DNA of 64,000 nucleotides from Schmidtea nova. Taxonomy: Eukaryota. Both the position numbers and the translations under genes were made by a program. The notes under the pieces are model-generated. The model ran no database searches. It was not told the origin of the DNA and was given only the letters and a program-made list of their open reading frames with translations. The DNA lies in the NCBI GenBank assembly GCA_044892505.1, contig CM097883.1, positions 226,052,001-226,116,000 on the forward strand. The letters are read 5' to 3'. Shown here piece by piece: positions 34,978-52,793 of this stretch. The number at the start of each line of letters is the position of its first letter. Position 1 is the stretch's first letter.

Positions 34978-36390
34978 CTATTCCAACCATCCTTTCGTTG
35001 ACTTCGTGTTCAACATTGTCGTGCTTGTCTTCTTTTCGACCTCTAACTGCACATATAGGTTGTCGTCGTACAACATTTCCCATATTTTATGGTGTACTAC
35101 GAATTTTGGTTCTCCTGTTGCTAATGAACATTCTGTGTTTGGTCTTTTGTACGCTTCGTGCTTTACATCAACTTTGAATATTCTCACTATCGTTTCTCTC
35201 GAATTTTTGATTCTCATTATCGCCTTTGTTTCTAGTGGGCATTCCAGTATATCGTCATAACCGCCTTTACATAACGCAAAAAATAATGACACATGCGTTT
35301 CCTTTCCTGGTCCATCTCCATTTGGATAAATTCTTATTCTGATTTTGTATCCATTTTTCCACAGATAGAATGTTGGACTTGTCACTGACACTTGTTTTCC
35401 TGCTCTTGCTGCTGTGGACTTATCGTTGAAGTTCGTGATTTTCCATACATACGGTGCAACAGGTAGGTTTTCTATATCCTCTGTATCTCGAATTCATATT
35501 TGATGTCGTACGTTTATTTCTTTTACTAAATTCTCTATGACCGTGATTTTGCCCATCATTTTCTCTCTGGTGAGTTCGAATTGTTCTCTCGTTTCCAGTA
35601 ACAGTTCTGTCATTACCCTCTGGGATTCGATTTCCTTTTCTAACTTCTGTATTGTTTGTTCCATCTCACTCAGATTCCCTGTCAACATCTCTGCGTGTTG
35701 TACGGTTTCCGTTTCTAGATGTTCTTTCGTCTCCTTGCTTGTTTTCCTTGCTTCGCATCCCTGTTTGCTCCATACACATTTTCTTGGTTTCGATTCGCAT
35801 TGTTCCCAATGTTTTCGTAACATTACTTCCTCTCCGATTCTGCAATTATTTGGACAAATTCCTCTGAATTCCACACATACTTTCTCTTCTGATACGTTGA
35901 TATGTTCTGTTTCAATTATTCCTTTCGTTTCCTTTTGTTCGCAATGTTGACATTCGATTATCTCTGCTTTGCACTCGTTCTTGTGATTTTCCCACTGTTT
36001 GATGGTTGTCGTCTGTCGACACTTTTCGCATATTGCTTTCTTGTTCTCACATTTCTCCAGATGTTGTGTTAGTTCGATTATTTGTCCTTTCCATTCGCAT
36101 GGTTGATTTATACATTCTGTTTTTATCTTCCAGATCTTCTTTTGGATTGCTTTGTCTGGTTTCGTTTCGTTGATTAGTAATTTATCGTCACACTCCGGAC
36201 ACTTTCTTGTCCCATCTTCGCGGATTATTTGCAATATACACTTGGTGCACATTCTGCATCCACATTCTGTTTGTCTCGGTTTTAACAGTAAGTTTTTACA
36301 CTTTACACATGTCACGGTTACTATCCATTGTCGATTCTCTCCTCCCAAAATTTCGATTGTTTGGTAATCTGCTTCACTTTCTGCTCTCAT
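34978..36390 (-). pseudogene. TRAF-family protein (RING, TRAF Zn fingers, coiled coil, MATH) with a single in-frame TGA at 35494
   Basis: CVKCKNLL..QTECGCRMCTKC..CPEC; CINQPCEWKG..HLEKC; YVWKITNF..SPTFY..GYKIRIRIYPNGDGPGKETHVSLFF..KGGYDDIL; the two ORFs share a frame. Confidence 0.93.
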
Positions 36391-36480
36391 TCTACAACAA
36401 TAGATACATCAACTCTCATATTTTTGATTTTTCTGGTTTTTTTATTTACACATATCTACACAATTTTCCGCTTTATTTCA

Positions 36481-36953: not shown

Positions 36954-38929
36954 CTATACCACTATCACTGGTTTTCCTTCATAACACTTCTCATCTTCGA
37001 TTTGTTCCAACATTTCTTTACATTTCGATCTTTTCTTCAGTTCTTTTCGTATTTCCTCTGGTAGTTCTATGTTGTAATTCATGACCTTTATATCTGGCCA
37101 TCGTTCTGCTATGGTCTTATTTCTCATGCCATACATCCAGCATACTACCATAATCGTTATCAGTAATATACACGCTATAAATACTCCAATGCTGATTAAT
37201 CCCATTATCGTTTTTCCAATGCTCTTTTTCTGAGTCTCGCTTTGGTTTATCATTACGCCATATTGACCTTTCCATTCCGCTTCCCATTGTTCGTATAGTT
37301 GTTGTCTCCGTCTGATTTCTTCGACTACTTTCTCTGGTTCCCATCTTTCTTGGCGGTTTGGTATTGTTTCTTCAGTCTCGGTTTGTTCTCTCATCTGACT
37401 CAATTCTTTGAATTCTAACTTTCTGATTCTTCTTTTTATTGTTATATTCCTTGGCGTATAATAGGTTTCACACCTCTCCTGTTGGTTTCCTTGTGTATCT
37501 ACTGCTTCTATTGCACATACTTCGTATTCTGCGTTTGTTTTTAGCCTCTGCATTTTTACTTCAATTATTTCCCCTTTGTTTCCTGCTGTCTTCTGGCAGT
37601 TTTGTGGAGACTTTCCTACATTATTTGGCATTAATTTCCAACAGATTTCTAGGACCTTCTTATGGATCTTCCATATTAGCAAGGTTGTTGACTCCGGTTT
37701 AACTTCGTTTTCCGTCGTCCTCCCCTCTGTTGTTATCCATTGAGTTTGTTAACCGTTGATTATCGTTGTTCTTTTTGACTCTTTCCTCTTCTGTCGGCTT
37801 CTTCTCATTTCAATTACTCTTGTTCCGTTGATTTTCTCTGGCGTCTTGTATAATTTGCACTCCAGACTTCTTTGTATTATTTCTCTTCTTCTTCTGATCA
37901 TGCAAATTTTGTAGGTTTGTCCGACTTCGAATCCATCTAGCTGAAATGGGATTCCTTGTTCTCTTGTTTTACATTGTGGTATTATGTTGCTGGTTGATAT
38001 TCCGAGATATTTTCTCCAACACATTCCAATCGTCCTTCGATTGACGTTTTTTATCTCCACTGTTACCACTTCGTTTGCCATTGTTTCATTGTCTTGCTTC
38101 TTTCTTTTCGGGAACTCGATTATCTCCTTTGGTTTAAACACTTTATACTCGCTCGTTCCTTGTCTATTTCCGTTTGCTGCTTTCTCATGAGACATAGTTC
38201 ACATACTTTATTCGTCTCTATTTCGGTTATTTCGATTTCTTCATTCATCTCCGACTCTCTACTTTCCTTTGTTTCGCTGATTCCAATTACTTCATTGTTT
38301 CGTCCCCAACATCTTCCATTCGTTGTTCGTTGATCCTGGATATTTAGTAACGTCATCACGCTGATGTCTATTTCTTCCTCAATTCTCTTAATTAGGATTA
38401 ATATTAATGCTACGCATATCAATTCTGTTTGGAATGTTAATTTTCCCGCTGGATTTTTGGTTATTCTTTCTTTCTCTGTTCGGTTTCCGGTTACTTCCTC
38501 TGCTTCAGTTTGATTCGTCTGTTTCCTTGATTCCACTTCTGTTCTTTTCGTTGTTTCTTCAATTCTTTTTCCAATCCATTTTTGTATTCTCAGCGCTTCT
38601 GTTGCTTTGAACAATTGACATGAAGTTACTTGAGGTGCTTTTGGTTCTCCTCTCTGCTTTATTGCGCATATTATGTATGACTTTTCTTTTTCCAATACTT
38701 TGATTTGGATGATATCTCGTTTCAAATCCGTCAATATACACTTTAGCGTTTCGTTCTTTCTCATATTCTCTTTCCAGCATATTCTTTCATATACTTCATC
38801 TCCTCTGATTATTTCCAGCGTGACGTATTGTTTCTTGGCTTCTCCTTGTCCGTTGATTGTTATCAATATCGCAAGACACAACATTTCTGGTCTCAAAAGT
38901 AGACTTCCTGTTCGTTTTTCATAGTTCAT
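36954..38929 (-). pseudogene. Membrane protein region: signal-like segments, 4 FN3-like Cys repeats, TM helix, cytoplasmic tail
   Basis: Repeats share CW(K/R)..C..L/F-E..Y-x-I/V-C-x-I..C-x-x-Y/F; TM IMGLISIGVFIACILLITIMVVCWMY; one frameshift and one stop. Confidence 0.6.
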
Positions 38930-39439
38930 ACATTCATCTTTTATTCCACTGTTTTCTCGTTCTTCGGCTTCTTCTTTCTTGTCGTTTCTCGTTGGTTTTG
39001 GTTCTTCCTGTCTTTCTTTTCTATCATCTTCTGTTCCTCTTTTATCGTTGTCTTCGTTGTTATCTTTGTTGTCTTCATCTTTGTCCCCACCTTTGTCATC
39101 GTAATCTCTGTAACCACCCCTGGTCCTTTCAAAATGTCGTCCTCGACATTAATTTCTTTAATCATCCTTTCGTACGCTTGAACTGCGAGTGTGCTAAACT
39201 CAAATTCTTGTATCTCCATATCTTTCGATGGTTCTACGCCTTCTCGTCTACTTTGGCTGATCGTTTCCTTGGCATCTGCCCACTCATTCACATACTTTTT
39301 GAATAAGTCTCTCCATCTTCCCATTCGTTCATGTTCATGGATTATTCGTAAATCTCAAATCTCTTCTCTTCAAGAACTCTTCTACTATCTCTGGCTTCTT
39401 GTGTCTTAATAACGCACCTCTGATACACCAATTCTGATT

Positions 39440-41189
39440 TTATTCCATATGGTCGTTAATCCTGAAGACCGGTTCCTTTGTGATCGAATTTATCCATGTT
39501 AGCAATGCTTTTGTTTTCTCGAGGTCGTGTATCTTTACCACTAGACTGAATTTTCCCACGTTATTTGCCAGATATTCGATCTCATCTTGTTTCTTGATGG
39601 ACTTTATGAACTTGATCATCTCGAAGTTATTCCACTGTATCGCAATATCCATGATAGAATTATTCTTTCCATTTTCCCCTTCGATTTTGGCTCCTGCTTC
39701 ATATAATTCGTTTAGCACTTTCCACTTAGTCTTTTTCCTTGCTGCGATTACCATAATTGTATCTCGATTGTCATCAACCGTATTCATCTCTGCTTCGCAT
39801 TTGATCATTACCCTTGCTATTTCTATAGCCTAATTTTCTTTCTTTCGACGTAATGCCCAGTGTATCGGTAGTCTCCCATCCTTTGATAATAGGAATGCCA
39901 CTGGCATTTGATTTTTGATCGTTTCTATGTCGCTCTCGTTATAGTCTCCTTGTGCTTATCTGTGCACTTTCTCTGTAATTGCTCCTAGTATCTCCAACGA
40001 GTTTTTAACTTCTTTAACTTCTGATATTTTTTTCCTGCGCTTTTGCCACGATTGCGCCTAATCCTTCTTGATAATCTGCCTTTGCATTGAACAACACTGC
40101 TTTGCTCTTTATTCGTGTCTGCATCTGTTTCATTCGTTGATCCTGGTACACTGCTTGTCTGAAGAATTGTCCGTATTTCAATGCTTCTACCAGATCCTTA
40201 TATCGCTTGCGTATTTCTTTGTGCTTCTATTGGATGTCATAGAAATGTTCGAAACTCATATCCGGATTCCATTGTTTGTCACACCATCTCCTGATTAATC
40301 CGAATAATTCTTTCTTTCGGTCTTCTAATTTGTACTACCTTGGGTTTTCTATGACCCGTAGCGTATCTCTTGATATCAACGCCACGAGAGTTTTCGGATC
40401 GTATGTTACTTCTAGTAGATGTTTCAGTAACGCATTTTATTTATTTGTAAACACTTCGTTACAATCTATGACCCATGAGTCTCCTTCTGGTCGTTTCCAC
40501 ATTAGCAATATTCTCCAGGTTTTACTGTTCTTTACTCCGATTGATTGTCTCATGATTGGGCCTCTAGTTAACTCATCGAACTCCCACGTGGCATTTTCCG
40601 TGATATATTTTAACATTCGGTGATTCGCTCTCTCGATTGCATGAGAAAAGAACGTTCTTCCTTCTTTATCTCTTGTTGTCCAATTTGATCTGGTGTTCCC
40701 GAATAGCTTGATTATCTCATCGTTTCTCCCATGAATTGTTATCATCATGAGTGGGGTAATTCCTTCCTAATTTACTTTGTCGATTTTTCCTCCACCTTCG
40801 AGGGTTATTTCCATAATTTCTTTCACCTTTTCGTTCCCACCGTGCTTGATTGCATTGTGCAGCGCTGTGTTACCGTCTTTATCTTGTAGACTCAATGTTT
40901 GAGGAATCTCTTCTAGTACCGTTCTTGTTATCGGATGCGCTGTTCTGTCTTTTGCGTAATTCATTACATTTTTCCGCACTTCTGTCAGTATATTGAAATC
41001 AAGCCACCATTTCCATTCCGGTATTAATTCTCTGGTCTTCTTTGCCAGTTCTTTGATATCTACCGTTTCCTTTCGGTTGTTCTCTAGACTTGTTTGTGGC
41101 TTTTGTTGTACTCGCAACATATTAATTCTCGCCGTTTGTGATCTCGTGATTACTCGTTTTTCTGGTAATAGAGTCGCTGTCTTCGGTAT
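39440..41189 (-). pseudogene. Two ankyrin-repeat clusters continuing from integrase
   Basis: QDKDGNTALHNAIKHG, N*EGITPLMMI, RDKEGRTFFSHAI; KDGRLPIHWAL, VDDNRDTIMVIAA, NGKNNSIMDIAI. Confidence 0.85.
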
Positions 41190-44100
41190 TTTCTTGCATC
41201 GACATGCGTTTACGTATATTGGTCTCACCAATGGATTGTTTACTAGTTTCACCGTACATTATTTTCATTTACCGATGTTATTTCGTATGGCCCTTTGCCT
41301 GGTCGTTGCAGTTTCTTGATTGTACCGGGTATTATCTCTGGTGTCTCTATTATCACCCAATCTCCAATTTTTAACTCATGTGCCTTCACATTCTTTTTCT
41401 GGTCATGCAAATCCTTGTAACTTTCTTGATAGAATTTGATGTTGAGTTCTGCCGTTTTCCATATTTCTTGCATTCTTTCTTTGAACTTAGTAACATAATC
41501 ATCAACCTCCATGTACTGTGATAATGGTGGTTGATATTCCAAGTCGATCGGTAAGTTACAATCTCTCCCGTACATCAATTAGAATGGACTTAGCTTCGTT
41601 GCCGCATGTATTGACATTCTGTATGCCATTAAACACAAGTTTATTTATTCGTCCCAGTCAGTCTGATGTTTACTGACGTAATTCGATAACATGAGTATCA
41701 ATGTTCCGTTGAATCTTTCTGTTTGACCGTTCGTTTGCGGATGGTATGGGGATGTTCGTAATTTCGCTATTCGGAAGTAATTCGTAACTTCGTCTAATAT
41801 TTCACTCATGAAATTTGTTCCTTGATCCGTTAGGATTTTCTTTGGTGTTCCGTATTTGCAGCATATCTCTTCCACCAATATTCTCGCGACTGTTTTTGCC
41901 TTTTGATCTGGTATTGCGAACGCTTCTGGGAATTTCGTTAGATAGTCCGTAACTATTAATATATACTGATTTCCTTTTAGGCTTTCTGGTAATGGTCCAA
42001 CTACATCCATTGCTATCGTCGACATTGGTTCTGCAGGAATTGGCATAGGTTTTAATGGTGTTTTCCACTTCGTCCCGACGTTCTTTCTTGTTGCACAGAT
42101 TAGGCAATTCTTTATCCACTCTTTTACGCCATCTCCCATGGTTGGCCAAAAGTATTTTTGTCTCAGTCTCCCGATTGTCTTTTTTGCTGACATATGTCCA
42201 CCTAGTTTTCCGTCGTGGTACTGAGTCATGATCTCTTTTCTTCTATTTGCAGGTAAGCACATCAGTCTCCTTTCTCCATCTTTTATTAGTAACCATCCTT
42301 TTTCCATCACGTATCTATGTTGATACTTTTGCATATGTTCGCGAAATGCTTGATTCTTGCTGAATATTTTCATCTCCTTTTCCTTCATATACTTGATGAT
42401 AAATCCCAATTATTCATCTTCATGCTGGTCTTTCCTTAACTCACTGAAATCCAAATCCTCAGCTATTAACACGCATATCTTGGTAGCATCCAGGTTTATC
42501 AACTCTGGGAATGTAAATCTTGACATGCAATCCGCGCTTGCATTTGCTTTTCCTGCTTTGAACTTTATGAATGGCGAGTATTCTTGTAACTGCATCGCCC
42601 AACGCATCAATCTACTTAATGATTCTTTATGCTGTCCTAACCATTCCAATGGTTGATGATCTGTCGTAATATATATTTCATGACCCCACAGCAGGTATTT
42701 GAAATGCTTGATTGCCAATATTATTGCATAAGCTTCTCTTTCTGTGACCGAGTAATTCTTTTCGTGCTTCCTAAATGTTCGACTGTAGTATTCAATTACT
42801 CTTTCCTTGCCTTCTTCATCAAATTGGCCTAATACTGCTCCTGCTGCGTATCCTCTTGCATCTGTTGCCAACAAAAATGGCTTCTTGAAGTCCGGATGGA
42901 TCAATATTGGTGCTGTAATCAGTTTGTCTCGTAATGTTTCGAATGCTGCTTGTTGCTCTTCTCCCCATACAAACGACACGTCCTGTCTTACTAATTCTTG
43001 CATTGGCTTCGATATTCATGCATAGTTCTTGATGAACTTTCTATAATATCCACACAATCCAAAAAACTCTTGTATTTGCGTCACTGTTTCTGGTGGTGGA
43101 CATTCTTTGACTTTTTCGATATTCCTTGGATCTGGTTCTTTTCCTCTTGCTGATACAATGTGACCTAAGAAGGTAATTTTCTCTTTTGCCCAATCGCACT
43201 TTGACGGCTTCAATTTCAGCTTCCATTGTCTCAATTTCACGAACACATTTCTGATGTCCTGTAGATGATCTTCAAACGTTGCGGAATAGATCAATAGATC
43301 TTCGATATACACGATGCATTGTTTTATGCCATGGGTTAGAAAATTCATACATCTCTGGAATGATGCTGGCGCATTTGTTAGTCCAAACGGCATTTTCTTG
43401 AATTGGTTCAGATCTCGTCCGATTGTAAATGCTGTTTTCTCTTTATATTCGTCTTTCATTTTGATCTGCCAATATCCGCTTTTTAAATCTAGTGACGTGA
43501 AATAGGCTGCTCCTTGTAACGTCAACAGCATCTCAACAGAATCTCTTTTTGTAACTGCGTTTAATCGTCTGTAATCAATACAGAATCTCTGAGTTCCATC
43601 CTTCTTTTTCACCATCACCACTGGAAATTGCCAGGGTGAACAACTGGGTTCGATGACCTCTGCATCTAGCATCTTTTGTACCTCTTCCTCTGCCACTGCT
43701 TTTTGAGCTTCTGCCAGTTTATATGGTCGTAATGCGATCGACGTTTCATCCGTTAACGGTATCGTGTGTAATGTTACATCACATGTTCCCAAGTCTAAAT
43801 CTGATCCTGCGAATATATCTTTATACTCCATCAACAACTTCTGTAGTTTTTCCTTTTGTTGTTCGTCTAACAACACACTGTCTATTTTCCATGGTAATTC
43901 GCCACTACTTTTCTCGTTCTTATCTGGTATTTCGATCTCGGACATGGGTGTCAATTTACCCAATCTCTCATTCTCGTATATTATGTTGTCCTCCTCGTCA
44001 AAATTCACCAGATTGATCGGTATCTCTCCTTCTTGATTTATCGTGACCAATTCTCTGGCCATTGGTAATTCCTTCTTTGCTTCGAAACTTTTACTTGGTT

Positions 44101-44638
44101 CGAATATCATTTCCCCTTTTATTGTTGAATCGATCTTCACATAACACATCATTTCGTGTCTTGCTGGTACAACTATTTGTTCCGCACTTGCTACTTTGAC
44201 CTCTATTCTGCAGATTTTTCCAGTTCTATCTTTTAACTTCATTGCTCCCAGGTCGATTACTATTTCCTTGAAAAAATCTGGCATCAGGTCAGTTCCAATG
44301 ATACATGGTACACTCAGCGATGGTATTACAGCGATGAACGTATCAATTTCCGCATTTCGATGTCTTATTTTTACAAGCCATCGTCCGGCTACTTCCACTG
44401 TTTCTTGACTGCATGCGATTACATGAACATTAGTCTTCTCAATCTCTCCTTTATTTTTCTCTGGTATATAGTTGATATCGATTGCCGAAATATTCGCGCC
44501 TGTATCGATCATAGCTTTGATTTCTCTTCCGTTTATTTCTACGGTTGTTGTTAGGATTGGTCCTGTACTTGTAGACATAACCGCTATCGTGTGCGTGTCT
44601 TCCAACGGGTCTACACTTCTGCATCTTTTACCTTGCAC
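41190..44638 (-). pseudogene. pol: Ty3/Gypsy pol: protease, RT, RNase H, integrase (inactivated)
   Basis: AMIDTGANIS; RFCIDYRRLN, LDLKSGYWQI, MPFGLTNAP, YIED (YxDD mutated); LATDA, NYSVTERE, TDHQPL, NASADCMSR; HHCC, MDVVG, TDQGTNF, QTERFN, GPYEI; four in-frame stops. Confidence 0.97.
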
Positions 44639-46946
44639 TCCTCCGGGATTATCGGGTATATACTCGTCATCGGCATCATCTGCATCACATTCGGTTTCGT
44701 TTTATACATAGGTTCGTTGTACATTGACTGGGGTGGGGCACTGTATCTCCAATTCTCAACTGCACTCTTTTCGGTATACTGTGGAATCTGGTTTATATTC
44801 GCTTGTCCTCCTTGATCGTCATCGTCATCGTCATCATTGCTTGAATTATCTTGCGTTCGATATCCTCTCACTCTTTCCCATAATCCATTCTTTTCTTTCT
44901 TTAGTCGTCGTCTTGCTTGTTCGTCTTGCATTATCTTTTTGAATTTCTTTCCGACATTTTCATTTGTTCCTTTCATTTTTGCGAGTATCTTCAACAATCT
45001 CTTTATCCGATGTATGTTCTTTGAATGTCCATGTAACACCATTGTTTTCGCGAGGAATGGTAAAGATCCTACTACTATTTTCCAATTCACTTTCTTTTCT
45101 GTCTTGTAGATAACGAAGCACGATAACATTTGCATTATTATCACTCTGACGATTTGTATTATTAATATAACACCTAGTATTCCAGCCATCATTTGTCCGA
45201 ATATCAGGAATCTTCCCCAAATTGCCTTCATCATATTCTCGGTGGCCTTCTTGAAATGTGCCGGTGACAATAGTAGTTCGTAATTCGGTCCTTCTCGGTA
45301 ATTCGTTCCTCCAGTTATCGTTACAATATTTGACAGTAAAGCTTCTCTTCTAGCCGGAAATAGTATATTCTGTCTCGCTGCTTCCAAGTCTTTTAGACTG
45401 TATATTCCGTTGTTTGATACATCGATATCGCTAAATTGTCTATCTTTTGACAGATGCATTAGCTCGAATTCTCTTGGTGCAGGTACTTCTGTTCTTGCTG
45501 GAAACATAACTCATTTGTCATCTGGTTTCTGATAAAGCGGTCCATACACATTACTGCAATTGAATGGATTCGGTTCAAACCCTGGTGGGTTGATGATTCT
45601 CGTCACCGGTTGAACGTATCGTACTTTTCACTTGTAGTCGATTTCTAACTCATTTGTACATGTTCCGGGTTTTAGTTGCGTTGTTGCTGCTAACGGCACG
45701 TGTGTCTTTTCGCAAATATACACATACATTGCCTCTCCGACCACTCTTCCGAAATTTCCTTCTCTCAGTGGTCCTAATGCATTGCACTATCTGGATTCGT
45801 AATTGCCATGGCTAATTTTGTCTTCAATATTTCTCGATTCAGTATGCAGTCGTTGTTTATCAGATCGTAATACACCTTTTGTAATGAAGCTTGTCCTCGA
45901 TGGAATAAGAAATCCATTTTATTATTCACGTACAAGTGTAATTTGATATCCATTGTGTCGATCTTGGGTTTCGCATTCGGCACTTCTTGTTTTGACACGT
46001 ATATTCCTGGGTAGTTCGTTTCGTATACCGTTGTACTACTCTTAAGGGTTGCTTTCCCTTTTATGAATCTCATTCCCACGTCCTGATTCGTGGTTATCAA
46101 CACTGTTGGTGTGGCTCTCATCTCTATCCGTTTCTCTTCTCGTTCTGGTTTCAGTTGTCTCTGATTTTCCAGTGCTTCCTTGAGATGCTTTGCTCTAATT
46201 TTATCATCATCTTCTTCTTGGAACGTTTTTCCTTGAATTTTGTCGAACTTTGCTCCTTGTAGCAGTTGCAATTGGCAATCGTTTATTTTCGATTTATACA
46301 CCAAGGTTGACATTCCCGTTTGACACATACTTCTGTTGATTTTGCACATGGATAACGTTTTCATTTCTCCTGTTGTTGGGTCGAAGAATGCTTCATAACT
46401 TTTCAATTCGACTATATACGTATCCATCACGACTAAGTTACTTGCAAGTGTTCCGAATATCGGGTAGGTTTCTCCTTGACAATAGCCTTCTCCTCCGGTA
46501 ATCCGTCCAGCTACATAATACGTCTGTTGCAGCATCTTTCCTGGCTTTCCTTTTATCTTGATTTTGTCTCTTGTTGTTACTTCTCCATGTCTAAAAAATG
46601 CTTCGCAGTCTTCTCCTTGTAACAGGATGGATTATCTTTCCGTACCTAGTATGACAATTGCTGAATAATGTCCTCTCCCACAATAAAATGCGAATCTCGT
46701 CTTCTGTACTTTGCATTCGTTAACCATTGTTTTTACCAATTCTGCTTCCTGGTACACATGATACCATTGTTCCTTTTTAATCTTTTTCAATTCTACTGGA
46801 GTTGCATCTTTGCATTGCTCAGTACCTCTCAACGAGTACTTTTCTCCTAATTTCATTTGATCACAGTCAAATACCTCAAAGGTTGTTACACCTTCCGTGC
46901 TTAACAACCATACCAACATCATCATGATTATCGAGTTTAAATTCAA
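44611..46946 (-). pseudogene. env: Envelope: class III (chuvirus/herpes gB-like) fusion glycoprotein
   Basis: Signal-like IIMMMLVWLLSTEG; FEVFDC..YSL..C; CKVQKTRFAFYCG; GYCQGETY; NNKMDF..DC; GEAMYV..C; GIYSLKDL..ILFP; TM MAGILGVILIIQIV. Confidence 0.8.
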
Positions 46947-47054
46947 CGTCGATCTCCCATTTCCTTGCATTGTTTGTCTATACTCTATTTCTCTCAATAC
47001 TCCTTCGAGCTTCTTTCGCATAACATTTGAACCATCTTTTGTCTGATTTTCTTT

Positions 47055-47501
47055 TAAAAACTTCTCCCATCCTCCTTTCCTGAGGATATATGGTTCGATT
47101 TTCTTCTCGATAATCATTGTCGTAGTTTTAATATATCTTCCAATCGGACTTGATTTCGGACTTCCTCGGCTTAGCGTTAACAAATTGTATATCGTATATG
47201 AGATTGCCACTAGATATTTGCTGTCTGTTTCTGGTCCATTAAGTAGCCTTCTTATCAACATTGTGGTTCCTTACGAATCTAGATGATTTGATTTTGTTTT
47301 CGCTTTTATCAATTCTGGCATAATCAGTGCTATTGCATTATGTAGCATCTTTTCCTTTGTACTAGGTTCTTTTATCCGCCACAGATTCTTTAATTCTGGA
47401 TCGATTATCGCTAATACATTCATTATCGTTTTGGTGAGCCATTCCTCTCCTTGACAGACTTGATTCTCTTCTTTACCTCTGATTTCTGCAATTTTGTCCA
47501 A
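47055..47501 (-). pseudogene. Bcl-2-like domain in frame upstream of the env signal peptide
   Basis: BH2-like IEPYILRKGGWEKF and BH1-like RLLNGPETDSKYLVAISY at nearly Bcl-xL spacing; one TAA at 47271. Confidence 0.7.
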
Positions 47502-47519
47502 TTTCCTTAAACATATTTC

Positions 47520-48869
47520 TCATTGTTCTTGTCTCCTTTCTTCTCTTGTCTTTGGGATTGTTGTTGCTGGATCTAGTTTTGGTCTTCCTCTCGGTCGTTT
47601 CTCCATTCCAGTTCCGGTTTCCACGAATCTCACTGATCTTCCAGTTTCTTCTGTGACGTCTCTTCCTTCGTTTGCTCGTTGTTCTAACCATCTTTCCATT
47701 TCTTGAGTGAACTGTGGTTTTTCTTGTTCATCTTCTAGATCATTTACCGTTTCTATAACTACCTCTTGTTCCACTCCTTGATCGTTGATTTCTGTTGGTG
47801 ACGTTATTGGCATCTCTATTATTCTGTCGAAGATGTTCATTGTTGGTTTCTGAGTCAACTTCATTAATTCTTCTATCGCTTCATCACTGTCTGTTAATAT
47901 CTCATCAACATCATACGCTTCTGGCGGTGTTCTCTCTCTTATTTTTACTGGTGTTGTTCCTGTTTGTCCCGAACTTGTTCCTGGGATCATTGTTGATTTC
48001 ATCGGACTATATGTACTTATGCTTTCTTTTGGCTTCTTTTCCTCTTTTAACTCCAATGGTTGACCCACTATTTGTGCCAGTGTTAGCGTGTTCATTAAGT
48101 CCAATTGCACTGGTGTCAGCCAGATTTCCAAATTGTTTTCTAACGATCGTCCTTGATGTTGTAAATGGAATGGTAGTTCATACATTAGCTTTTCTTTAAC
48201 ACTCTTCACTTTCTCCGTTAGCATCACCCAAAACTCTTCTTTTCTCTGATTCAGATATATTATTCTCAAATGTATTTTTTGTAGCGTTTCGTCTGTGAAT
48301 TCTCTGTTTCTCCATTTTTTGATTACATGGTCTAGTTGCTCTGGACACCACTCATTGACCCTTTTGTATTCTACTATCGCTTTGGCTACTTTTCTCAGAT
48401 TCGTTACATCTTCTCCGTTTACAATTATAAATTCTGCTAAGCCTTTGACTGTTCATCTTTTTCCTTGAGCATTTCCTCTCAATAATTCGATTATTTTGTC
48501 CGTTTTCTGCTGCTCCAATTCTGCCCATATTGCTGCTGTTTCTGGTCCATCTAAATCTGTTGGTAATAGTTTTCTTGTTACCATACATATCCTTTTCGTA
48601 TCTGATTCGTATCTGTCTTCCACTTCCGGATCTTCTTCATATACGCCTCCTTTCGCTTTCCAACATTTCTCTTTATCAGCCCATTGTTTCTCCACTGGCG
48701 TTAATCGTCGTCTGTTAAGATCCAATTCTCCAAATACCGTTTCCCATTCTGGCTTTATCTGCCAGTTCCGATTGATTTCCACTATCTGTCTCAATTTTCG
48801 CATAACGTCCTCATGTCGTTTCTTTCTCCTTTCCTCATCTTTTGGTGTTACTCTCGGCACATCATCCAT
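47520..48869 (-). pseudogene. Unassigned polyprotein segment
   Basis: ORFs 48453-48869 and 47520-48269 share a frame, split by one TGA; low-complexity acidic tail with basic motif KRPRGRPK. Confidence 0.6.
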
Positions 48870-49110: not shown

Positions 49111-49380
49111 AGTCTGATATTTCTCCTCGTTTGAACATTGCTTTTCCCATCTTTGCGATTAGCTTGTCCGTTTTGAAATGGGAATGTCTGGATTTACTTG
49201 TATCTCGTATATTCTCGATACACTGTTTCAAATTCTCATATTCGCTTCTCATCAAAACCTTTCGATGTTTCCCGATTTGCTAGATGATCTGTTCTATCGT
49301 CGTATTTAAATTCTCCGCCAAGATTCTTTCTTTCGCCTCTGTTACTCCCATATCCTCCCATATATCAGTCATCTTCAACT

Positions 49381-51495
49381 TCACTTCTGGTAGATCTTCT
49401 GTTTGTAGAAATGCTTCTCTGGCAGTTTCGTCACTCCCGAAATCATCTCATTTACTTTATTGAACAATCTTCCTACTTCTTCTTTTACATCATATTTGAA
49501 TCGAAACACGTGATCATTTTGCATGATCACCAACATTCCTCTTTGTTTAATTCTCACTTCTACCTCTTGATTCGCTTCTTTCTCTGCTTCTGTTTCTTTT
49601 TCCGTTTCTTTTTCTGCTTCATCTTTTTGATTTTGCTCTGCGGTTTCTACTTCCTGATTCACTTGCTCTTGTTTCTGCTCTTCGTTTCTTTTCTTTTCAA
49701 CTTCAGCTTCATCCGATTTATCTTGCTGCTTCCTCTTCATCATTGCTCGTATCATATTTATCCTTGGATTTCCCATTTTTAACTGTTGTAGCCATTGTTG
49801 TCTGACTTGTTCTTCTTCTCGTCGTATTCTGGCCCATTCTTGATTGTGTCTCTGTTGACTCTCTTTATTCTCTCTTTCAGCTTCGTCTTCGATTAATTGG
49901 ATCATATTTATCTTCGGTTGAGCAGCTTGCTGGCTCCCTTTTGCCATATTTTCGATTATCTCGTGTAATCTGGATACTTCCTGCCTCAATTTGGCTTCTT
50001 TCATACTAGCTTCGTTTGCATTGTTATTCGGGTTGTTCCGTTGTTGGTTCTGATTCACATAGCTTGGTCGATTTACGTAATTCTGTCGATTTCCGTAATT
50101 CTGTCGATTTCCATTGTTTGACCAGCTTCTCTGTTGATTACACTCTCTTGACATGTGTCCAGGTTTTCCACATGTGTAACACGTTTTTACGTAACACCGA
50201 TTCTCTGAATGACCCTTTTGTCCACACATTTTACAGGCTACGTTCTGAAAACAATCTTGTTGCATATGTCCACTTTTCCCACACGTCTGACATTGTCTAT
50301 TCTGCCTGTTGTTGTAACTGGTTCCTCCATTTGCGTTTACTGTGATATATCCTTTATTTTTCCTCTCTGGTGGCTCTTTAAGCAATCTCTGCAAATGGGG
50401 AATACTCTGGTTCATATTTCTTTTTCCTTGTTCTTCATCTTCTGTCGTTTTTTCCATTACTGCCATTATCCTCATATCGTTCATTGTCATATGCAATTCG
50501 AACAGGTTGGCTGCTTCCAACGCTTCGTCTACCGTTTTATATCCTTTGCATCCCACTTGTGCTCGGATATCAGGTCTCCTGAGGCCTCGTACAAATAGTG
50601 CTGTCATTAACTTCTCGTCTACTGGGCTTCCTCTGTTGAATGCTAGCTTAGCCAACTTCCTTAATTCGCTTGCATACACTGCATTTGACTCGTTTCTCCT
50701 CTGTTTTCTCGCTGAGAATTCATCGAATGCTTCATTCAAACTTTATTTATTCCAAACTTCTGTTGGAAGAATTCCTTTATCGCTTCCCACGTTCTGGGTG
50801 GACTGCTTCCAGATCTCTTTTCAATATACAGATCCAATGCGCTATCTTTCAAGTATAGCGGGATTCGATTTGCCAACGTTTCTGCACTCAATCCGCATAT
50901 GTCTACAAATATGCCAAATTCTTTTAGAAACGTATCTAACCTGCTGGCGTCTCCATTGAATGGTTCGCCTTTGAATTTTTCTCTTAAATCCTCTCTGTGA
51001 TCACTCATCCCGATTCCACTGACTTGGAATGTTGTACTAGCTCTCTTTGTTTCTAGTTCACCGCTTGTTTCCGGGTTGACTCTTCTTCTTCACTGATCTT
51101 TGATTCGTTATCCCTTGATTCGCTGCTTGTACTGTTTTCACTGACTAATTCACTGTCTATCGTTTCTACTTCGGTCCGTACTTCTGGGTTCTCTGGGGTT
51201 TCTCTTTGGTTTTCTTTATTACTCGAATTATCACTGATCTCTACTGGTTGATTCTTCTGCTTCTTCGATTCTTTTGTTATTCTTGCATTTTTCGCTGCTT
51301 TTCTTTCTTTTTCTGTTAAGATTGGTATTACTCCTGATCTCGTTTCGCGTTCTGCAATTTTGTTGCACTACTCAACTTCTTGTATTTTCAACTAGTTGTC
51401 TACTTTGTTCTTGCTTGGCTTCTTCTTCGATTTGTTTCCTTTGATTGTTCTGACTGCTAGATTGCTTTGAATTGCTTTGAATAATTTGTTTCCTT
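49381..51495 (-). pseudogene. gag: Ty3/Gypsy gag with three CCHC zinc knuckles
   Basis: EPFNGD..FLKEF..LKDSALDLY; RKQRRNESNAVYASELRKLA..LFVRGL; CQTCGKSGHMQQDC, CKMCGQKGHSENRC, CYTCGKPGHMSREC; frameshifts near 51030 and 50740. Confidence 0.93.
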
Positions 51496-52328: not shown

Positions 52329-52640
52329 ACCCACTCTTATTCACTTTCCCTCATTAATTCCACACTGTATGCATACTTTAATACTACTAGGCCACGTAAT
52401 CAGCTTTACTCGCATTATCAATTCAGTGGTGCGTACCTTTAAATTCCTCATTATCACCTCGGTTTCTTTCAACCGTTATTCATCACTATTATTCACTATT
52501 CATTTCTACTATTCATTATTCATCTTCATTATCAATTATTCCTCTCTACTATCCGGATAGTTTTTATGCTTCATTTACTTTTCATTTGCCTCACTTCGCT
52601 GTCTTTCTCGTGAGCTTTCACTCAATATCCTATTTCGAAC

Positions 52641-52793
52641 GAGAACTATGCTCACAAATGAGAACTATGCTCACTGACGAGAACAATGCTCACTACGAGA
52701 ACTATGCTCACTACGAGAACTATGCTCACTACGAGAACTATGCTCACTACGAGAACTATGCTCACTACGAGAACTATGCTCACTACGAGAACT
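52641..52793. repeat. 18-bp tandem repeat gagaactatgctcactac (~8.5 copies); 64-bp repeat x2 at 52861-52970
   Basis: Seen directly. Confidence 0.92.

Follow-up and report, generated by a model that had tools for sequence, protein, structure and literature searches.

The locus raises the question of whether a giant retroelement carries a Bcl-2-like domain immediately in front of its envelope protein (env), and whether one hydrophobic helix, the env signal, could at the same time anchor that domain in a membrane. We analyzed a stretch of 64,000 nucleotides of Schmidtea nova DNA (here called the window), in which the minus strand from about 34 to 58 kb corresponds to a decayed giant Gypsy-like retroelement, with element-like base composition. 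Its domains follow the order gag (CCHC), a stretch without an assigned domain, the Bcl-2-like domain, the hydrophobic stretch, env, protease-reverse transcriptase-RNase H-integrase (PR-RT-RH-IN), ankyrins, and a TRAF-like gene. Our reading is that the Bcl-2-fold domain in the gag-env-pol frame might be a cell-death blocker held at the endoplasmic reticulum (ER) through the cleaved env signal, a proposal that we regard as evenly balanced between right and wrong.

By the layout and domain order described for Burro, the window element is a Burro-type giant Gypsy. The Burro description used for the comparison includes two long terminal repeats (LTRs) and a total length of about 30 kb; no LTR pair was found within the 64-kb window. 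All parts of the element lie on the minus strand. The broken gag, with its CCHC zinc knuckles (zf-CCHC, E = 7.7e-11), spans positions 49381 to 51089, its start being placed as in a stop-free copy. Env, a Monjiviricetes-type fusion glycoprotein, is found in several pieces at 44611 to 46880, where three window open reading frames (ORFs) matched PF24664 (E = 5.4e-7, 1.9e-19, and 8.9e-22), and hydropathy points to one membrane anchor at about 45,136 to 45,192. The pieces of pol (protease, RT, RNase H, and integrase) span 41645 to 44701. After the integrase come ankyrin repeats at 39440 to 41258 (Ank_2, E = 1.9e-5 to 1.3e-3), and the 3' end of the element holds a broken, near-complete TRAF-like accessory gene at 34978 to 36408 (TRAF3_RING, E = 4.3e-4) with a RING, zinc fingers, a coiled coil, and a MATH-like end that was read by eye; the ankyrin and TRAF scores are under the Pfam cut-offs. 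Past the ankyrins, at 36,954 to 39,148 on the minus strand, we observed accessory frames with hydrophobic membrane-like segments (KD19 up to 3.06) and without a clear Pfam family. Toward the other end, a tandem array with a unit of about 18 to 19 bases occupies 52,640 to 52,790, within the element's 5' untranslated portion, and is also present in a stop-free copy. Between 54,800 and 56,700, depth falls far below the level seen elsewhere in the element, and there are two unrelated ORFs, neither of which has a Pfam match; a piece may have been inserted here within the LTR region.

The original prediction mentioned no stops. As seen in the sequence, a premature TAA at 47271 to 47273 lies inside the Bcl-2-like fold, and a TGA at 47520 to 47522 interrupts the helix upstream of it. 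Env and pol are interrupted as well, and in comparison with one stop-free copy some 850 bases are missing near 49,335. This copy is dead, and the protein cannot be made from it. Because of these stops, the tests described below were run on natural stop-free sister copies.

The case for a Bcl-2 domain had started from two short motifs aligned to Bcl-xL. Both are present on the minus strand, RLLNG at 47,235 to 47,249 and GGW, the BH2 motif, at 47067 to 47075, and their spacing of 61 residues against 60 in Bcl-xL holds as an inclusive count against the Bcl-xL chain. GGW is invariant in 12 aligned rows of seven families. The reported loss of the NWGR signature was also confirmed in the aligned rows of the window family (family A), where the loss includes its Arg, and one copy of family C retains NWDR. 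No BH3-type Asp was seen in the predicted helix 2 of family A. The half-domain of the window scored 13.1 bits (E = 0.15) against Pfam PF00452, under the cut-off of 31.4 bits, which was reached only by some copies of sister families. A single stop-free copy retrieved no Bcl-2 chain from the PDB sequences and nothing above 0.80 from the Atlas, and a word-indexed protein search with single sequences of family A gave no matches. The family A domain is detectable only via profiles and folds; single-sequence searches fail. PF00452 matched 9 of the 12 aligned rows (best E = 9.3e-8), the three unmatched rows being those of A and A2. A profile of eight family rows, three of which had been found with a Bcl-2 profile, matched Bcl-xL with an E value of 2e-7, and a profile of four rows that had not been found via Bcl-2 matched Bax first (E = 0.0012) and then Bcl-xL. 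Overall, the Bcl-2 likeness exceeds chance, though not from the window sequence alone.

Structure prediction on two natural stop-free copies led to the same assignment. For sister copy L009, which shares 93% identity with the window over the 209-residue query, the model had a mean pLDDT of 64, with the five models ranging from 41 to 64, and Foldseek returned only Bcl-2 proteins among the matches listed, none of them at E ≤ 0.001. When the model was compared with 48,161 chains by VIA-align, the best match was Hydra Bcl-2-4 (Z = 14.1, 137 residues, rmsd 2.7). Since the chance Z of helical bundles can reach 13 to 14, the case is made by the run of Bcl-2 rows above unrelated ones: the first 33 rows were all Bcl-2 folds, and unrelated rows began at a Z of 5.9. 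The family C model gave a Z of 13.2 (126 aligned residues, rmsd 3.2), a Foldseek E of 7.8e-4, and a value of 0.95 to a Bcl-2 cluster of the Atlas, and the best viral structure rows were v-Bcl-2s (best E = 7.5e-3). The groove wall is poorly modelled, given that residues 78 to 88 of L009, which form part of it, have a pLDDT under 50 and that the five models vary as described. Judged from these models, the domain almost certainly has a Bcl-2 fold.

With its eight helices over about 137 residues, a hydrophobic helix 5, and the BH2 GGW, the predicted domain resembles cellular and viral Bcl-2 proteins, the relatives compared being Hydra HyBcl-2-4 (6wgz), Trichoplax trBcl-2L2 (6yld), Bfl-1, Bcl-xL, ASFV A179L, and KSHV Bcl-2. 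It differs from them in an identity of only 8 to 15%, the absence of NWGR, a degenerate BH3, and its place within a polyprotein. Residues 29 to 171 of L009, mapped in register, put helices 1 to 8 of the fold, broken here, at 47037 to 47465. Therefore, the extent first given to the domain, 47,055 to 47,501, overlaps the fold, but it also takes in part of an extra N-terminal helix that lies outside the fold (47475 to 47546; residues 2 to 25 of the L009 model), for which the family C model has a pLDDT of 43 to 45.

A search of the same genome gave 2,433 candidates, 150 of which were scored, and all 150 matched, many of these sister copies lying in open frames of about 5,080 to 5,090 residues. Six further families (A2, B, C, G, D, and E), with 14 to 65% identity to family A, were gathered via the Pfam Bcl-2 profile, an env profile, and a search with a family member. 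Thus, at least seven related families of giant elements coexist, with open frames of about 2,990, 3,070, 3,400, 5,090, and 5,690 residues. The order Bcl-2, signal, env was found in all seven, four of which were scored in dozens of copies, and in every family a single open frame runs from Gag through the Bcl-2 domain and the signal into the start of env. An RGRP word, located at 47577 to 47600 on the minus strand in the window, which we take to be AT-hook-like, is present in families A, A2, and B and absent in C, G, D, and E. When non-overlapping profiles were compared, family A was linked to B/C/G with an E of 9e-6 (probability 83%) and weakly to D/E with an E of 7e-4 (probability 27%).

When 11 rows were searched against a library, 19 matches were obtained. 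Eight of them show the order Bcl-2, linker, signal, and env, four are element-like fragments that end earlier, and the remainder are five cellular-type Bcl-2 proteins, one of which (P0019) is without a tail, and two saposins (P0008 and P0020), which were taken as false. One outside element with the Bcl-2, signal, env order, P0015, has two protease-like stretches after env, at residues of about 1,060 to 1,157 and 1,342 to 1,430.

The conservation of GGW across copies, on which the original prediction depended together with the fold, was evident in all seven families. In-frame GGW precedes env in all 30 loci of family A, in 27 of 30 loci that were found by env alone and belong to two related families, in 15 of the 16 long-frame loci that PF00452 retrieved, and in 9 of 12 family C loci. 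At the seven loci that miss it, the motif region is still present, with point changes or shifted frames. Across the fold of 29 sister copies, pS was 0.188 and pN 0.005, a pN that is lowered by the choice of these copies by protein similarity. Residues 29 to 96 are outside the query, and residues 29 to 105 show the same pattern. Between families A and A2, pS was 0.83 and pN 0.149 over the fold. The Bcl-2-like domain is under purifying selection. The fastest-changing part is the linker behind the domain, with an identity between A and A2 of 40%, against 72% in the fold.

As described above, the domain was thought to be fused directly to the env signal. This did not hold, since a charged, partly helical linker of 45 residues (46932 to 47066, minus strand) separates the Trp of GGW from the hydrophobic core in family A. 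The same distance is 31 to 58 residues across the elements, compared with only 14 to 19 residues between GGW and the tail in the four cellular tail-anchored Bcl-2 matches. The hydrophobic stretch itself, at 46881 to 46931 on the minus strand, aligns with PF24664 from position 4 on. Because it aligns with the start of a viral glycoprotein profile, its best interpretation is as the signal of env itself, a predicted internal signal peptide with a core at 46,902 to 46,931, a c-region at 46,881 to 46,901, and a predicted cut between 46,881 and 46,880. Small residues at -3/-1 before an xxx(Y/F)DC start were found in all 10 own-genome rows and in 7 of 8 outside element matches, against a background of about 10% of positions (59/598 and 64/577); the families are kin, so these counts are not independent, and they serve as a pattern check for which the register of the cut was taken from an analogy to the xxx(Y/F)DC start. 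Four outside sequences that stop before any env start (P0009, P0013, and P0014, which are short, and P0007) were left out of the count. From these patterns, the stretch is very probably a cleavable signal of env.

A cleavable signal is a different thing from the tail of a cellular Bcl-2 protein. For targeting to mitochondria, Bcl-xL needs no fewer than two basic residues on both flanks of its transmembrane segment, and Bcl-2, which is described as lacking such basic flanks, spreads over several membranes (PMC2172731). The family A core has 13 uncharged residues (KD19 = 1.52), and no basic residues follow it in the c-region; together with the 45-residue gap, these features set it apart from a mitochondrial-type tail anchor. 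Outside matches have cores of 8 to 16 uncharged residues, and families D and E have 19. The suggestion that the signal could remain as the C-terminal anchor of the Bcl-2 domain was therefore upheld in one part and not in another. If the stretch behaves as env's cleavable signal, its remnant would stay on the upstream product after cleavage, as had been proposed, and would probably keep the domain at the ER membrane for a while at least. However, such an anchor would not be typical of Bcl-2 proteins, being further from the domain, short, without a basic C-flank, and presumably inserted in the ER, in contrast to the basic-flanked anchors at 14 to 19 residues. Neither would it belong to Bcl-2 alone, as it is predicted to hold the whole Gag-to-Bcl-2 precursor. 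Apart from the hydrophobic Bcl-2 helix 5 in D and E, no signal-like segment was found upstream of the env signal in the seven families. The Gag N terminus has no clear myristoylation Gly in six of the seven families, as read from the 5' parts of seven natural copies (L126 to L132), which fits membrane tethering via the env signal.

In the simplest topology, the polyprotein would cross the ER membrane twice, going in once and coming out once. Signal peptidase would cut at the predicted env N terminus, leaving the Gag-to-Bcl-2 part in the cytosol on a type II anchor made of the cleaved env signal. The ectodomain of env would face the lumen, with PR-RT-IN on the cytosolic side behind the env anchor. 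The element protease might then trim Bcl-2 from Gag, and the Bcl-2 domain might dampen Bak/Bok-type killing by the host in cells that express the element. Flavivirus anchored capsid and the alphavirus structural polyprotein have a similar arrangement of an upstream protein and a glycoprotein signal. The core protein of hepatitis C virus (HCV) ends with the signal of E1, which anchors it in the ER until signal-peptide peptidase sets it free (PMC5402940). By analogy, a cytosolic upstream protein of the element would end with the signal of the next glycoprotein and would stay ER-anchored. The upstream product differs from HCV core in comprising Gag and cargo, the latter ending with a Bcl-2 fold, and the enzymes come after the env anchor; no homology is implied, and cleavage in the element is a prediction. 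The idea of one helix for two proteins thus has a precedent, which is at the same time one that makes the anchor transient. A hepacivirus- or flavivirus-like topology would be unusual for a retroelement, and the complete version of it, with one helix as env signal, Gag tether, and lasting Bcl-2 tail, a working blocker, and Pol held by the env anchor, appears to us rather doubtful.

One alternative is that the anchor is only transient. As in HCV core, where the same kind of anchor is removed (PMC5402940), a cut by signal-peptide peptidase or by the element protease, either within the signal or ahead of it, could release the Bcl-2 domain in soluble or peripheral form. The short core, which contains polar or helix-breaking residues in several families, would be in keeping with such a cut, and the long, variable, and exposed linker could hold one. 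Nevertheless, the 19-residue uncharged run of families D and E is enough for a stable anchor, and the proposed protease words, (R/K)I(N/C)xx, which occur upstream in A, A2, and C, were not visible by eye in the aligned linkers. We consider this release unlikely, and we hold a lasting anchor formed by the signal remnant to have an even chance. In another alternative, a spliced RNA would be the main source of env, whose N-terminal signal would then be an ordinary one, and the adjacency of env to Bcl-2 would reflect gene order only. Other gypsy-like elements make env from a separate ORF (PMC6431247), and family A has Met codons in the linker, at 47,010 to 47,021 and 46,962 to 46,973. This is the least likely of the alternatives, because 4 of the 10 rows (B, B2, D, and D2) have no Met between GGW and the core; moreover, all seven families keep the frame open from Gag to Bcl-2, and Pol made from the long frame must pass the signal. 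We therefore regard it as very unlikely.

What the domain does is a separate matter. Its fold is closest to pro-survival members, and the B-IAP cargo of Burro1 is reported, second-hand, to protect stem cells (PMC13465017), which makes an anti-apoptotic role our best guess, one that we favor by a small amount. The loss of the BH1 Arg leaves room for a non-apoptotic role, and the degenerate BH3 points the same way. The poxvirus Bcl-2-fold proteins A46, A52, B14, and K7 block innate-immune signalling, and a block of this kind would have company in the TRAF and ankyrin cargo of the element; alternatively, the fold might act as a membrane-proximal Gag scaffold, as the lack of a clear Gag myristoylation Gly suggests that the anchor may mainly serve Gag. 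These non-apoptotic roles seem to us improbable. Both models are nearer to the cellular and herpesvirus/ASFV Bcl-2s (Z = 10 to 14) than to A52, A46, and B14 (Z = 5.8 to 7.5), the BH2 GGW is invariant, and the B-IAP cargo, according to the same second-hand account (PMC13465017), gives Burro1 another functional anti-apoptotic component.

The placement of Bcl-2 before env is already known. Planarian Burro has been described with a BCL2-like motif followed by an in-frame env (PMC6431247), and what is reported of Burro/GYPSM1 in that review, which cites Grohme 2018 and Jurka 2007, agrees with our element in the polyprotein of about 5,000 residues, the CCHC Gag, the BCL2-like motif, the many copies, an in-frame env between BCL2 and PR with homology to mononegavirus-like fusion proteins, the ankyrins, and the MATH/TRAF cargo. 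The differences are that the available text of the review (PMC6431247) contains neither a fold model nor a selection test and describes no signal peptide or topology, and that the window copy is broken. Since the layout has been published, the finding itself adds little, and the topology is a modest new hypothesis. Literature searches did not return the reading of the signal as an anchor; the signal, or what the domain does, may already have been treated in Grohme 2018 or Lee 2026. What is added here is support from structure and selection that the Bcl-2 fold is complete and maintained in at least seven families, together with a testable polyprotein topology. Should the anchor last and the domain block Bak, elements that have been linked to the survival of planarian stem cells would carry, next to B-IAP, a second gene against cell death, and the topology would hint at the way in which an element whose env lies between gag and pol delivers its components to a membrane.

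Regarding the origin of the domain, a tree built from 18 rows over 66 columns, which left out five near-duplicate element rows, placed the seven element rows together on one side (support 91/96, not starred). This is consistent with one capture, and the element Bcl-2 domains probably derive from a single event. The 18-row tree showed no donor gene, and the element rows adjoin host genes L036, L038, and L056 with weak support (75/74). These three belong to a host group of short, diverged Bcl-2-like genes (with L042, L050, and L059), some of them with a basic-flanked tail, and the same group scores best against the element profile. Given the weak support, it is a possible donor lineage. The extra helix upstream of the fold carries a weak BH3-like LxxIA word in the window, and an LxxI(A/S/T) word was found in this helix in five of the seven families. 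When it was compared as a candidate BH3 with the BH3 exon of a host Bak-like gene (L118), the best segment in this zone ranked 2nd to 24th among 907 to 1,771 sequence segments and never first, and we keep the identity of the helix as a BH3 as a weak lead. Two Bak-like host genes, L035 and L037, face each other about 133 kb apart near 503.6 to 503.7 Mb, and L118 is likely the BH3 exon of one of them, located about 11 kb upstream and putatively joined to exon L035.
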